In this document: positions 39,752-45,451 of the stretch, in pieces | Position numbering within the stretch: position 1 is the stretch's first letter | Layout: the number at the start of each line of letters is the position of its first letter | Assembly (NCBI GenBank): GCA_013151255.1 | Contig: JAADIQ010000120.1 | Location: 20,894-84,893, forward strand | Length of the DNA: 64,000 bases | Source: Alphaproteobacteria bacterium | Lineage (GTDB): Bacteria; Pseudomonadota; Alphaproteobacteria; Caulobacterales; Parvularculaceae | Direction: 5' to 3' | The notes under the pieces: model-generated | Databases searched by the model: none | What the model was told of the DNA's origin: nothing | The model's input: only the letters and a program-made list of their open reading frames with translations | Position numbers and translations under genes: made by a program

Positions 39752-40495
39752 TTAGAAAAACAACAGCTTAACGGCCATCGCCACGAGTGCTAGATAGAAA
39801 ACCCGCTTAATCAGGGCCTCGCCTTTGGCGATCGCGGCATTGGCGCCGAGCCAGCCGCCAATCGCATATCCCGCAGCCAGCGCCAGCCCCAATACCCATT
39901 CGATTTTAACATTCGCGGCATAGACGCCGAGCGACACCAATGAGAACACCAGCGCGACAAAAACTTTGTGCATATTCGCGCGCACCAGATCGAGGCCCAT
40001 GACGCGGTTGAGAATTGGCAGTTGGATCAGCCCGACACCGATCTGGATAAACCCGCCCCAAAACCCCGCGCCAATAAAAAGAATATGCCCGAGGATAAGG
40101 TTGCGCGGCTTGCCGCCCGCCTCGATTGGTTTTTGTCCGGCGCCGGTCATCATAATCACCAACAGGCCGAGCATAATCATCGCCAGTGTGCGCTCGAACC
40201 ACACGCCCTCAAGCTTTACGCCAACATTGGCACCAAAAAATGCGCCAACGGAGGCGCATACGGCGAGCGACGCGCTGAGCTTAAAATCCGAAAATCCTTT
40301 GCGGAAAAACCCCCACACCGCCATCGTATTCTGCGCAATGATGCCGATGCGATTGGTGCCATTGGCCACCGGTCCCGGAAGCCCGAGAAACACCATGATT
40401 GGTACAGAGAGGATAGACCCGCCGCCGGCGAGCACGTTTATCCAGCCGGAGGCAATACCGGCGATGAAGAGGAGGAGGAGCTGCAGGGGGTCCAA
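39752..40495 (-). CDS. TauE/SafE sulfite exporter family membrane protein
   Basis: AGGGS, ANGTN and GFWGGFIQIGVG motifs; multi-TM. Confidence 0.9.
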   Translation of the reverse strand: MDPLQLLLLFIAGIASGWINVLAGGGSILSVPIMVFLGLPGPVANGTNRIGIIAQNTMAVWGFFRKGFSDFKLSASLAVCASVGAFFGANVGVKLEGVWFERTLAMIMLGLLVIMMTGAGQKPIEAGGKPRNLILGHILFIGAGFWGGFIQIGVGLIQLPILNRVMGLDLVRANMHKVFVALVFSLVSLGVYAANVKIEWVLGLALAAGYAIGGWLGANAAIAKGEALIKRVFYLALVAMAVKLLFF

Positions 40496-40561
40496 CTTGG
40501 ATTCAATCCAGGTTACTGAAATCTGAGTCTAGAATAAACCGTGTTGCATTCGCAATCGCTT

Positions 40562-41077
40562 TTATGGTTTAGAAAATTTTGGACTAAATCGTTTCCTGAA
40601 CAAAAACCGCACAATCACACTGGCGGCGATGCCAATTGCGCCTAAAATTATTGGCGCCACAAGAAAAGCATAGCCTGATCTGATTTGATAAAAAGCTGTC
40701 AGCACAGCCGTAACCGCTAACGCAACAAATACTGAGGCAGTAATTGCCAATCCGTATCCGAATTTCCCATCATTTCCTGAATTCAAAGAAATATATATAC
40801 CCGTGAGCAAGGCCTGAATACCACCAAATATATATCCATAAAACGCGACGGTTATAAACGCCCTAGACAGGCTCAAAAATATCTGTATCGGTTCGGCCCG
40901 TACATTGTCTAACCAAGATTGAAAGCCGGTTTCTATGGCTAAATACACATAGATTGAGAGCATCGCTATGATTCCACCAATAGGCGGACCGGCGAGCGTG
41001 TAGATCAGAATAATCCACGGTTGCCTACACTTGTGGGGCGGCGCGTCGCCATCGGTCAAATTGCCCATACTCATCAC
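40562..41077 (-). CDS. Hypothetical membrane protein (AT-rich)
   Basis: About 4 TM segments; composition visibly AT-richer than neighbours; overlaps the upstream stop. Confidence 0.6.
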   Translation of the reverse strand: MMSMGNLTDGDAPPHKCRQPWIILIYTLAGPPIGGIIAMLSIYVYLAIETGFQSWLDNVRAEPIQIFLSLSRAFITVAFYGYIFGGIQALLTGIYISLNSGNDGKFGYGLAITASVFVALAVTAVLTAFYQIRSGYAFLVAPIILGAIGIAASVIVRFLFRKRFSPKFSKP

Positions 41078-41580
41078 CGCATCATCCCCGCCAGCGCGAT
41101 TACAAAAGCAAGCTCGATCAAGACTGTTAGCGGCAATCGCACGCTGAGATACCAGGCCGGGGCACCAGAGCCGCGGCGTGTTGCGTTGAGATCATCGACC
41201 AACAGCACGCCGGTAAGCGCCATGATCGCCGGAAATTTCCAGAGCGCGCCGCCAAGCGGCAACAATAACGGAAAAGCTAACAGCAATGGCGCCGTTGCGC
41301 CCAATAGGCTCCGCATGGTCGGGCCTTCCGGCTTCATGACCACGACGCCCCATCTAACGCCGCCGAAAAAGATGATTACGACAGCGCCATAAAGCCCCAT
41401 AAAACCTGCATATGGTTGAGCGTTATACGCCTGGCTAATAACGATCATCAATGCAGCGGCAATTAACGGCGCCGCCGCCAAATAAGCCAACAGCATCGCT
41501 GCGCCGGTATTAGTTTGCGTTTGCAATGAAGAGACAGAACCGCCGGTTTTTGCGTCAGCAACAAAAGCGTCATAGGCCAT
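41074..41580 (-). CDS. DUF3429-like membrane protein
   Basis: YGAVVIIFFGGVRWG and WYLSVRLPLT pattern. Confidence 0.75.
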   Translation of the reverse strand: MAYDAFVADAKTGGSVSSLQTQTNTGAAMLLAYLAAAPLIAAALMIVISQAYNAQPYAGFMGLYGAVVIIFFGGVRWGVVVMKPEGPTMRSLLGATAPLLLAFPLLLPLGGALWKFPAIMALTGVLLVDDLNATRRGSGAPAWYLSVRLPLTVLIELAFVIALAGMMR

Positions 41581-41626
41581 GATACGTCTCCTTTATTGGC
41601 GCCGAAGCGCGCTGAATGAAACGCAA

Positions 41627-42205
41627 CTAGCTTTTGTCTTTTTCCTTCTTCCCCAAAAATGGCGTCAGAAGGTCAACCGCTTTTGCTCCCATTTTAATCA
41701 GCGGCAGGAGTTTGGATTTTGGAATGGCGTTCATTTGCTCATACCAATCATCCAGCGTATCAACGAGTTCCTGCAAATCCTTTAGGCGTTTGATGGCTGT
41801 TTTCGTCGCCGATGGATCGGTTTGCGCGTCGGCAAGGCAGGCGCGCAACACTTCCGCCGCCGGTTCAAGTTCGCGCTCCTTGCGCATGGCGACGATGTTG
41901 CTCACCATTTCCCAGACATCGCCTTCCGCCTCAAAATGATCGCGGCGGTCGCCAAGGATTGGCGCGCGCCGAACCAAATCCCAGGCCAGCAAATCGCGCA
42001 TGGAGTTGGATACATTTGAACGAGCAAGACCGAGCGTCGCCGCGATTTCTTCCGCCGTCAGCGGCTTTTCACTAATCAGCAGCAAGGCATGAATTTGCGC
42101 GACGGATCGATTGACGCCCCAGGAACCGCCAAGATCGCCCCAGTGCAACACGAAACGCTCGATGGCCGGGGTCAGCTTCACAGTCTTGTCTGTAATTTCT
42201 GTCAT
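41627..42205 (-). CDS. GbsR/MarR family transcriptional regulator
   Basis: FVLHWGDLG..WGVNRSVAQIHALL, winged HTH ARSNVSNS..DL..W and RRDHF motifs. Confidence 0.88.
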   Translation of the reverse strand: MTEITDKTVKLTPAIERFVLHWGDLGGSWGVNRSVAQIHALLLISEKPLTAEEIAATLGLARSNVSNSMRDLLAWDLVRRAPILGDRRDHFEAEGDVWEMVSNIVAMRKERELEPAAEVLRACLADAQTDPSATKTAIKRLKDLQELVDTLDDWYEQMNAIPKSKLLPLIKMGAKAVDLLTPFLGKKEKDKS

Positions 42206-42274
42206 AACAGAAATATCAGAATTACACATAGCAAAAGCAACGGGGCAGGACGCCGCAGGGCGCACTCTCAATCG

Positions 42275-42391
42275 TGGGATTTTTCCCATATGTCAGCTAA
42301 TCTTGGCGCCATATTAGCAATATTACGTTGAAACCGTCCCACGATTGTGTATTTGAACATCTGAATTAGAAAATTCATGGGAACCGTCCCG
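42275..42391. promoter_or_regulatory. Three copies of a TGGGA-N4-TCCCA operator-like palindrome
   Basis: TGGGATTTTTCCCA at 42275-42288, TTGAAACCGTCCCA at 42328-42341, TGGGAACCGTCCCG at 42378-42391. Confidence 0.6.
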
Positions 42392-42393
42392 AT

Positions 42394-43545
42394 ATGACTG
42401 AAATTTCCGACCTCGTCGCCCGTGCTGAGAAAATTGCCGACCAGGCGGGGCTTTCGCTCTCGACGGTCTCGCGCAAGCTGTTGAACGACGGCAAGGGGCT
42501 CGCCCGGCTCAAATCCGGCGGGCAATGCACGCTCAAAACCCTGGAGACAGCGCGCACGCGCCTCGCCGAACTTGAGCAAAGCTACGCGGCGAAAGATCAG
42601 CCACGGCCGGGCGCCGTTACCCCCAAGCCTGACGTCTTGTCCGCTCGGGCAATGACGCATCTTGACCGGCTCGAAGCGGAGAGCATCCACATCATGCGCG
42701 AGGTTGCGGCGGAAGCGGAAAAACCGGTGATGCTGTATTCCGTCGGTAAAGATTCCGCCGTCATGCTGCATCTGGCGATGAAGGCCTTCTACCCCTCCAA
42801 GCCGCCCTTCCCGCTTATGCATGTGGACACCACCTGGAAATTTAAAGAGATGATCGCGTTTCGCGACGAAACGGTCAAACGCCTCGGGCTCGAGTTGATT
42901 GTCCACACCAATGCGGAAGGCGTCGCGCAAGGGATTAATCCGTTTACGCATGGTTCACAAATCCATACCGATGTGATGAAAACCCAAGGGCTGAAACAGG
43001 CGCTTGATAAATATGGCTTCGACGCAGCCTTTGGCGGCGCCCGGCGCGACGAGGAAAAATCCCGCGCCAAGGAGCGTATCTTCTCGTTCCGCTCGCGCGA
43101 GCATCGCTGGGACCCGAAAAACCAGCGCCCCGAGCTTTGGAATATTTACAACACAAAGATCAGCCAGGGCGAATCCATCCGCGTCTTTCCGCTATCGAAC
43201 TGGACCGAGCTTGATATCTGGCAATATATCTACCGCGAGGCGATCCCGATCGTTCCGCTGTATTACGCAGCAAAGCGCCCAGTGGTGAAACGCGACGGCG
43301 TGATGATTATGGTGGATGATGAGCGCATGCCGTTAAACAACGGCGAGCAACCGGTGATGGAAACCGTGCGCTTTCGCACCCTGGGGTGCTACCCATTAAC
43401 CGGCGCGGTAAAATCCGACGCCGCGACGCTGCCGGACATTATCTCCGAAATGCTGACCGCAAGAAACTCCGAACGTGAGGGACGGGTGATCGACCACGAC
43501 CAGTCCGCATCGATGGAGAAGAAAAAGCAAGAGGGGTATTTCTAA
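42394..43545 (+). CDS. cysD: Sulfate adenylyltransferase subunit 2 with an N-terminal HTH extension
   Basis: The core from [12 protein letters not shown] (42652) has [22 protein letters not shown] and RFRTLGCYP. There are 86 extra in-frame N-terminal residues. Confidence 0.95.
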
Positions 43546-43546
43546 A

Positions 43547-45451
43547 ATGGCCAACGCCCCCCTCACCGCCGACGACAATGTCATCGATTATCTCGCCGCC
43601 CATGAGCGTAAAGGGCTGATGCGGTTCATAACTTGCGGCAGCGTTGATGACGGCAAGTCGACGCTGATCGGCCGGCTGCTTTATGACTCGAAGCTGCTCT
43701 ATGATGACCAACTCGCCGCACTTGAAAGCGACACCAAAAAGCACGGCACGCAAGGCGAGAAAATTGACTTTGCGCTGCTGGTGGACGGCCTCGCCGCCGA
43801 ACGCGAACAGGGCATCACCATCGATGTCGCCTACCGGTTTTTCTCCACCGAAAAGCGCAAATTCATTGTCGCCGACACGCCGGGCCATGAGCAATATACC
43901 CGCAACATGGCGACCGGCGCCTCGACCGCTGATCTCGCCATCATCTTGATCGATGCGCGCCGCGGCGTCCTCACCCAGACCAGGCGGCACTCCTATATCG
44001 CCTCGCTGCTCGGCATTCGCCATGTGGTGGTGGCGGTCAACAAGATGGACCTTGTCGGCTACTCCGAAAAAACCTTCCGCGAGATTGAAAGCGCCTATCG
44101 CACCTTTGCCGAACCGCTGGGGTTTCAATCAACCGCCATCATGCCGCTATCGGCGCTGGACGGTGACAACATCCTCACCAAAAGTTCGCATACGCCATGG
44201 TATAATGGCGCCGCGCTGATGCCTTACCTTGAAACCGTCAACCTATCGGCGGTGGACGAGAGCCAACCGTTGCGCATGCCGGTGCAATGGGTGAACCGGC
44301 CGGATCTTGATTTTCGCGGCTTTGCCGGAACCATCGCCAGCGGAACCGTCCGCCCGGGCGATGAAATCGTCGTCCTGCCATCAGCCAAACGCTCTAAGGT
44401 CGCGCGGATTGTGACGATGGATGGCGACATACAAGAGGCCGGCGCCGATATGGCGGTGACGGTGACGCTCGAAGACGAAATCGATATCTCCCGCGGCGAT
44501 ATCATCTGCGCCGGCAACGCGCCGGCGGAACAGACCGACCAATTCGCCGCGCATCTTTTATGGATGGCGGAGGAGAAACTCTTCCCCGGACGACAATATT
44601 TGTTGAAGACCGCAAACCGCATCGTTCCGGCGACGATCACCGAGCTCAAACACAAAGTTAATGTCAACACGCTGGAACATATGTCCGGCAAGACGCTGGA
44701 GCTCAACGAGGTTGGGTTTTGTAACTTCAACCTGTCGCAACAGATTGCCTTTGATCCTTACACCGAAAACCGCCGCACTGGTTCTTTCATTTTGATTGAC
44801 AAGCGCACCAACGCCACAGTTGGCGCCGGGATGATCGATTTCTCGCTCCGGCGCGCGCAAAATGTTCACTGGCAAGACCTCGACATTAATAAAACAGCGC
44901 GCGCCAACGCCAAACATCAACGCCCTTGCGTCCTTTGGTTTACCGGGCTTTCCGGTTCCGGAAAATCGACCGTCGCCAACCTGGTTGAGAAACGCCTCCA
45001 CGATTTGGGTCGCCACACCTATACGCTTGACGGCGACAATGTCCGCCACGGCCTCAACAAAGACCTTGGCTTCACCGACGCTGACCGCGTCGAAAACATC
45101 CGCCGGGTCGCGGAAAGCGCAAAGCTTATGGCCGACGCCGGACTGATCGTCTGCGTTTCGTTCATTTCGCCATTCCAAAGCGAGCGGCGCATGGCGCGTG
45201 AATTGTTGGAGGACGGAGAATTTATCGAAATCTATATCTCAACGCCGCTGGAAGTCTGCGAGCAGCGCGACGTCAAAGGGCTTTACGCCAAGGCGCGGCG
45301 CGGCGAGATCAAAAACTTCACCGGCATCGACAGCGCCTATGAAGCGCCGGAGCATGCGGAGATTGATATTGATACGTCTAATGTCTCCGCCGCCGATGCG
45401 GCGGATGCGATTGTTTCGCATCTACAGGAAAAAGGGTATTTTAAGTTATAA
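43547..45451 (+). CDS. cysNC: Bifunctional sulfate adenylyltransferase subunit 1 / APS kinase
   Basis: [20 protein letters not shown] and NKMD GTPase motifs, then the APS kinase motifs [20 protein letters not shown] and RDVKGLY. Confidence 0.96.

Follow-up and report, generated by a model that had tools for sequence, protein, structure and literature searches.

The only cysD gene of the genome lies at 42394-43545 on the plus strand of the window (the whole stretch of DNA that was analysed, 64,000 nucleotides long) and encodes a protein of 383 residues. Residues 1-67 (42394-42594, plus strand) form a predicted helix-turn-helix (HTH) domain, the proposed DNA binder, which was kept in all fused orthologues. 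The domain is followed by an Ala/Pro-rich linker (residues 68-86, 42595-42651), variable in length and sequence with the reading frame kept, and then by the catalytic core of CysD, sulfate adenylyltransferase subunit 2 (42652-43545), which begins at the canonical CysD start. The core matched the CysD equivalog model NF009214 of NCBIfam from residue 82 with 557.7 bits against a cut-off of 413, and Pfam PAPS_reduct also matched from residue ~82. The next gene of the operon, cysNC (43547-45451, plus strand; NCBIfam NF004035, 1059.6 bits), starts 1 nt past the cysD stop and encodes a fusion of the CysN GTPase and APS kinase.

A divergent gene on the minus strand (41627-42205, with its true start at 42205) encodes a MarR_2/GbsR(CudC)-like regulator, as judged by a Pfam MarR_2 match of 2.7e-10 and a weak GbsR/CudC-like match. 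The start codon of this gene (42203-42205, minus strand) is overlapped by a palindrome, ATTTCTGTCATaACAGAAAT, which at 42195-42214 takes the form of a perfect 8+8 inverted repeat, ATTTCTGT-CATA-ACAGAAAT. The repeat was conserved in most loci carrying the MarR-like gene and was seen in none of the loci without it, and it is probably the autoregulatory operator of the MarR protein itself. Downstream of the regulator gene, the minus strand at 39752-41580 encodes a DUF3429 protein, an unannotated ORF of 171 residues and a protein of the TauE/SafE sulfite-exporter family. The regulator may therefore control a sulfite/sulfonate export module, and regulator and module may stand back to back with the sulfate-activation operon. 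Between the start of the MarR-like gene and the first palindrome upstream of cysD, the minus strand also carries a GC-rich hairpin followed by a T-run (GCGGCGTCCTGCCCCGTTGC TTTTGC, 42237-42256), the core of which (GGCAGGACGCCGCAGG) was kept in the closest relatives. When positions 41000-44000 were compared with Rfam at E <= 1, no known RNA or riboswitch was matched.

Palindromes upstream of cysD

The preliminary description of this DNA had reported three sites of the form TGGGA-N4-TCCCA between the two divergent genes and called them a triple palindromic array. The strings and the coordinates of all three were exact, as were the spacings of 53 and 50 bp. Site 1 (TGGGATTTTTCCCA, 42275-42288) had no mismatch to the pattern, site 2 (TTGAAACCGTCCCA, 42328-42341) had two, both in the left arm, and site 3 (TGGGAACCGTCCCG, 42378-42391) had one. 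Site 2 opens with the -35-like hexamer TTGAAA and site 3 ends 2 nt 5' of the ATG at 42394, again as described. The statistics of the window were weak. At up to two mismatches the window showed no excess of the pattern (15 matches against 20.9 expected), and at up to one mismatch it was not enriched in the 3.1-Mb genome (30 found, 31 for the reversed-pattern control). Three matches within 120 bp were found in 6 of 300 Markov-1 simulated windows, for a pattern that had been picked post hoc. The comparative evidence was decisive. It came from about 55 distinct HTH-cysD loci, drawn from two families of a Caulobacterales/Parvularculaceae-like order, and the motif was conserved upstream of each orthologous fused gene examined.

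Judged by this comparison, sites 1 and 3 are parts of a genuine 22-bp palindrome. The extended consensus, built from 53 sites, was aATCGTGGGA-wwww-TCCCACGATt, with arms conserved to 92-100% and a spacer that was just A/T-biased; in the orthologues the position and the half-site sequence of sites 1 and 3 were kept, and the 4-nt spacers varied. The distal palindrome, a putative operator, is ATCGTGGGATTTTTCCCATATG at 42271-42292 (core 42275-42288), scores 24.3 bits and, like the other elements of this kind, is given no strand. A distal copy was also present in nearly all fused orthologues, 94-139 nt before the ATG, and over most of the orthologous loci a site was kept 92-139 bp upstream of it. 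The proximal palindrome, the second putative operator, is TTCATGGGAACCGTCCCGATAT at 42374-42395 (core 42378-42391) and scores 16.9 bits. It borders on the start codon and overlies the ribosome-binding region, where its GGGA provides the sole Shine-Dalgarno-like element. In all the fused orthologues compared, a proximal site was found 14-30 nt before the ATG, in most with its centre 6.5-27.5 nt upstream of the ATG. Some loci (L027, L083 and L088-90) had only one full site. When 16 intergenic regions from the same genus were aligned, the columns conserved to at least 80% were the palindrome arms, the TT of the -35-like hexamer and the ATG only.

In the window, 103 bp separate the centres of the two palindromes. 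When the loci were compared, the spacing of distal and proximal sites formed classes of 52-53, 58, 67-68, 82-85, 92-97, 102-106 and 115-117 bp. Most of these came close to an integral number of helical turns (mean phase 0.97 turn for a pitch of 10.5 bp, among genomes that are related and not independent), and the classes of 58 and 67-68 bp were out of helical phase.

Site 2 is of a different nature, and of the triple array only the two outer members stood as palindromes. The left arm of site 2 was not conserved. Its right arm, TCCCACGA, was kept, and this half-site stood directly after a CTTGNN/TTGNNN hexamer in ~20 distinct loci (~40% of loci) of several genera, including g14. In the presumed promoter of cysD, the -35-like hexamer TTGAAA occupies 42328-42333 on the plus strand; an equivalent CTTGNN/TTGNNN hexamer was present in many orthologues, and its TT was among the few conserved intergenic columns. 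A weak -10-like hexamer, TATTTG (42350-42355, plus strand), follows 16 nt past it and is a candidate by sequence alone. A strict sigma-70 consensus scan of 42150-42450 found no promoter; the hexamers are weak, and the promoter itself is presumed by comparison. Since the left arm of site 2 was unconserved and the right arm recurred after the hexamer, the real part of site 2 is the half-site TCCCACGAT (42337-42345), which would lie in the spacer of the likely promoter. The stretch AACCGTCCC, reported as common to sites 2 and 3, is present here and is specific to this genome, as it was not kept even in the closest relatives. On the assumption that transcription begins near 42362, the distal palindrome would be centred near -80, the half-site near -21 and the proximal palindrome near +22.

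The N-terminal domain of CysD

The CysD proteins of 24 same-genus genomes and of two from another family could be aligned over residues 1-383. Residues 1-62 were highly conserved, opening with M.EI..L..RA...A, and were followed by an Ala/Pro/Ser-rich linker and then by the canonical CysD start. Among 201 sampled genomes of the order, the N-domain was found in 46, belonging to two of six families, almost always as a single copy within a frame of 370-420 residues. Named records of fused CysD came from Parvularculaceae/Hyphococcus, Robiginitomaculum, Hellea and unclassified Caulobacterales. These public homologues are labelled plain CysD, with PF01507 as their sole Pfam domain and no domain assignment for the first ~65 residues.

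An AlphaFold2 model based on 58 fused homologues gave residues 1-67 a pLDDT of ~90, with four helices (residues 2-18, 22-30, 35-40 and 47-67), a linker (residues 69-80) with a pLDDT below 50 and a well-folded CysD body. The N-domain modelled alone had a pLDDT of 87. A Foldseek comparison with the PDB returned lambda-repressor-like/XRE HTH proteins as 30 of the 30 best matches, with TM scores of 0.45-0.62, probabilities up to 0.87 and E-values of 0.5-2 that were not significant; the best matches were 434 repressor, C.Esp1396I, HipB, NatR, ClgR, DdrO, SinR and 434 Cro. None of the Pfam HTH models matched the N-domain above threshold and no XRE model matched at all, the best being LacI with 19.5 bits against a cut-off of 27. 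A sequence search of the PDB with the N-domain gave no match, and the phage family PHROG 7669, of unknown function, was matched with an E-value of 4e-6. In the models, the N-domain is confidently folded into four helices, predicted to be an HTH of the lambda-repressor-like kind, on a flexible, disordered linker of ~20 residues. The residues invariant among 58-67 aligned sequences were T24, S26, R27, K28, N31, D32, G33, K34, R38, L39, G42, G43, Q44, T46 and T49. Those from T24 to L39 fall in predicted helix 2 and the following turn, which would be consistent with a putative recognition helix that reads invariant half-sites.

An exhaustive search for relatives of the N-domain gave ~90 clusters, including many unnamed proteins of 63-105 residues with 35-55% identity. 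The sole relative that could be placed is a free-standing homologue of 67 residues with 40% identity (L094, 1486-1689; G037:C3, ~130.3 kb). It is divergent from a cI-like gene with HTH_3 and Peptidase_S24 domains and occupies the position of Cro in a prophage-like immunity region; between the two genes lie different palindromes, built on GGTAA/TTACC. Five loci (L076-L080) had a seemingly split N-domain ORF directly before cysD. These were not counted as evidence and are probably indel artefacts, because the assemblies carry many broken genes and a matching Hellea MAG (L116) has the fused form. In three of them (L076-L078, from three ENA assemblies), near-identical to the Hellea MAG, the domain was a separate ORF of 68-69 residues where the MAG has one frame, and cysN was also broken. 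In an Aestuariivirga sp. MAG (L146, 604-870; NZ_JADCDB010000001.1), CysD carried a different N-terminal extension of ~62 residues, MDSLARSFLSEIERFLASAGVEPTALGKQALGDPNFVFDLRKGRSPSTRTIDKVRSWM, with a similar helix pattern, and the TGGGA motif was absent upstream of that cysD. This may be a second, divergent fusion of a DNA-binding domain to CysD, in Hyphomicrobiales.

Co-occurrence of the palindromes and the domain

In loci with the N-domain from genera outside the PWM training (L038-L064 and L081-L093), one or two sites of at least 12 bits were found in all but the genus g14. In the four exceptional g14 genomes (L082, L085, L086 and L087, corresponding to G062, G181, G122 and G186), half-sites TTCCCACGATT persisted at the distal and the promoter positions, the full palindromes had decayed or been respaced (N5, N6 or N3), and the GGQ of the N-domain had become GGG or GGR. 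Four other g14 species had lost the domain together with all half-sites, so that g14 looks like a system caught while decaying. In 12 loci of this family or order with a CysD devoid of the domain, no site was found, and not even a CCCACG/CGTGGG half-site was present in 350 bp. Among independent named records, a site was present in 11 of 11 loci with the domain; of the 68 loci without it, one had a site, which was marginal (12.3 bits).

The co-occurrence of motif and domain was phylogenetically clustered. On a tree of the CysD core, which was poorly resolved at depth, the domain label changed ~5 times on the best tree and once when only well-supported branches were considered. The number of independent gains or losses behind the co-occurrence therefore lies between 1 and ~5. 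Covariation of protein and DNA was also considered and gave no clean specificity switch: in g14, whose sites had decayed, Q44 was replaced by G or R, and in one f6 clade, which kept perfect sites, by S.

Within its own genome, the distal cysD site was the best match to the PWM. Matches of at least 13 bits were not in excess (8, compared to 16 in a shuffled genome), and the runner-up, with 17.0 bits, was intragenic, in a PBP1A-like ORF. In five complete relatives the pattern count equalled the control and the best matches were again the cysD sites. A genome-wide regulon was rejected for the own genome and these five relatives, as no further credible sites were found and the extra matches were intragenic (lipoyl synthase, the PBP1A-like ORF) or stood beside unrelated genes.

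Proposed control of the cysD-cysNC operon

The preliminary description had proposed two candidate binders, the HTH fused to CysD and the divergent GbsR/MarR protein. The first of these now draws strong support from the co-occurrence of sites and domain, from the single-target distribution of the sites and from the predicted fold. Because the sites are conserved, tied exclusively to the domain and unique in the genome, and because the domain has a predicted HTH-like fold, we consider it likely that the cysD-cysNC operon is negatively autoregulated by the enzyme's own HTH at two palindromes and a half-site, possibly with looping. Oligomeric CysD, or a complex of CysD and CysNC, would present paired HTH domains to the palindromes. 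Occupancy of the proximal site would cover the 5' leader and the ribosome-binding region, occupancy of the half-site would fall between the -35 and -10 elements, and the distal site would lie ~80 bp upstream of the presumed start. With the sites over the leader, in the promoter spacer and further upstream, occupancy would therefore repress cysD-cysNC. Repression would probably be cooperative, perhaps with looping of the ~103 bp between the palindromes, and the outcome would be negative feedback of the CysD enzyme on its own synthesis. The binding, the sign of the regulation, the looping and any control by substrate or product (ATP, GTP, sulfate, APS or PAPS) we infer from the sequences and the structural models.

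One alternative is that an unlinked transcription factor, for example of the LacI family, binds the sites and that the N-domain has another role. We regard this as unlikely. LacI-family operators typically have a central CG, and the A/T-rich spacers of the present sites are without it. The 14-bp core does have the same 5-bp half-sites and 4-bp spacing as the actinobacterial CelR/CebR box TGGGAGCGCTCCCA (PMC3377646), the best Pfam match of the N-domain was the sub-threshold LacI HTH, and three LacI-family proteins are encoded in the genome. However, the box has GCGC where the present spacers are A/T-rich, the flanks here extend the palindrome to ATCG...CGAT, and two strong sites, of 20.4 and 28.0 bits, are present in the complete genome G024, which encodes no LacI-family HTH (PF00356). 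The identification of the sites as CelR/CebR boxes was therefore rejected and the likeness treated as resemblance only. Shared ancestry could also account for the co-occurrence of domain and motif; against an unlinked factor, it would take an unparsimonious coincidence for a single-target factor to track the N-domain perfectly over ~55 positive and ~80 negative loci.

It is similarly improbable, in our estimation, that HTH-CysD binds these sites to activate the operon, or both activates and represses it. With a start near 42362 assumed, the centre of the distal site near -80 would correspond to a class I activator position. On the other hand, the half-site in the spacer between -35 and -10 is placed as is typical of a repressor site, and so is the full site that overlies the leader at about +22.

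A role of the palindromes as RNA hairpins, for example in sequestering the ribosome-binding region, has less in its favour than either of these. Located immediately 5' of the ATG, the proximal palindrome is part of the presumed 5' leader and contains the only Shine-Dalgarno-like element, and the distal palindrome folded better than its shuffles (-8.6 kcal/mol, z = -2.35). Yet the proximal hairpin was weak (-5.2 kcal/mol, z = -0.8), the arm sequences were invariant and not covarying, and the same sequence recurred as a lone half-site, which is unable to form a hairpin; for these reasons we consider the role very unlikely. In addition, the distal copy is located 5' of the presumed promoter, Rfam gave no match, and the associated domain has a predicted DNA-binding fold.

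The other binder of the preliminary description, the divergent MarR/GbsR-like regulator (41627-42205, minus strand) acting on TGGGA-N4-TCCCA to control cysD, can hardly be upheld: MarR-family dimers bind palindromes, which fits, the gene is adjacent and divergent here and in most of g1, g13 and g16, and the distal site is 76 bp upstream of its start codon, yet an orthologue (E <= 1e-10) was missing genome-wide from 16 genomes (99-100% complete; five of g1, four of g14 and seven of f6) that keep both N-domain and operators, the gene was far from cysD in g20 and f6, two g17 genomes had it without the motif, and a palindrome of a different sequence overlies its own start codon.

The layout had also been likened to the operators of a cI/Cro-like switch, a comparison that did not hold. 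The two full palindromes are separated by ~103 bp, a half-site stands in place of a third palindrome, and no two divergent repressors compete for adjacent operators, the MarR-like protein being dispensable and having a palindrome of its own. XRE-type proteins such as 434 repressor/Cro, C.Esp1396I, HipB and SinR are palindrome-binding dimers that often autoregulate from several operators. The predicted four-helix fold of the CysD N-domain is similar to theirs at TM 0.5-0.6, with E-values that are not significant, and one free-standing homologue lies beside a cI-like gene in the position of Cro. Unlike them, the N-domain matches no XRE model of Pfam, is fused to an enzyme, and is associated with operators ~100 bp apart rather than adjacent, with no partner repressor sharing them.

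Autoregulation by HTH-CysD would have functional parallels among enzymes that act as repressors. BirA is a biotin ligase with an N-terminal winged HTH, and PutA carries a ribbon-helix-helix domain. BirA and CysD both form an acyl- or sulfo-adenylate from ATP, and biotinyl-AMP modulates the DNA binding of BirA. The archaeal RbkR is likewise a bifunctional enzyme-repressor (PMC5397151). As in BirA, NadR, PutA and RbkR, a predicted DNA-binding domain is fused in HTH-CysD to a complete and presumably active enzyme, which passed the CysD equivalog model, and palindromes that co-occur with the domain lie in the promoter of the enzyme's own pathway, with a putative regulon that is essentially single-target. 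HTH-CysD would thereby have the structural features of a bifunctional enzyme-repressor, as far as sequence and predicted fold can tell. It differs from all four in that the enzyme is the small subunit of ATP sulfurylase and the pathway is sulfate assimilation, and from BirA and PutA in that its HTH is predicted to be lambda-repressor-like rather than winged-helix or ribbon-helix-helix.

Knowledge of how sulfate assimilation is regulated comes mainly from CysB in gamma-proteobacteria, and for alpha-proteobacteria it is, as far as we know, poor. CysB, of the LysR type, is a separate global activator in enterobacteria that responds to N-acetylserine and has many targets. The element described here would act on the same sulfate-activation genes that CysB controls as cysDNC; unlike CysB, it is a local element that goes with a domain within the enzyme. 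Literature searches for HTH-CysD, for the motif and for an ATP sulfurylase that regulates itself or acts as a trigger enzyme turned up no account of such a system.

A bolder version, which we put forward tentatively and think less probable than simple autoregulation, is that HTH-CysD is a metabolite-sensing trigger enzyme. Nucleotide, sulfate/APS or the assembly state of CysD-CysNC would then decide the pairing of the HTH domains and the looping of the promoter, and this would replace a CysB-type regulator in these Caulobacterales-like bacteria.

For annotation, the finding concerns proteins that are currently labelled just CysD and whose first ~65 residues are shown as domainless. The locus would offer a compact and easily tested model, with a single protein and a single promoter that carries two palindromes and a half-site, and natural variants are at hand in the form of spacing classes about one helical turn apart, operators decayed to half-sites and lineages that have lost the domain. 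If autoregulation by HTH-CysD is true, ATP sulfurylase would join the short list of enzyme-repressors formed by BirA, NadR, PutA and RbkR. If metabolite sensing were true as well, the enzyme would directly sense the sulfate-activation flux and feed it back to transcription.
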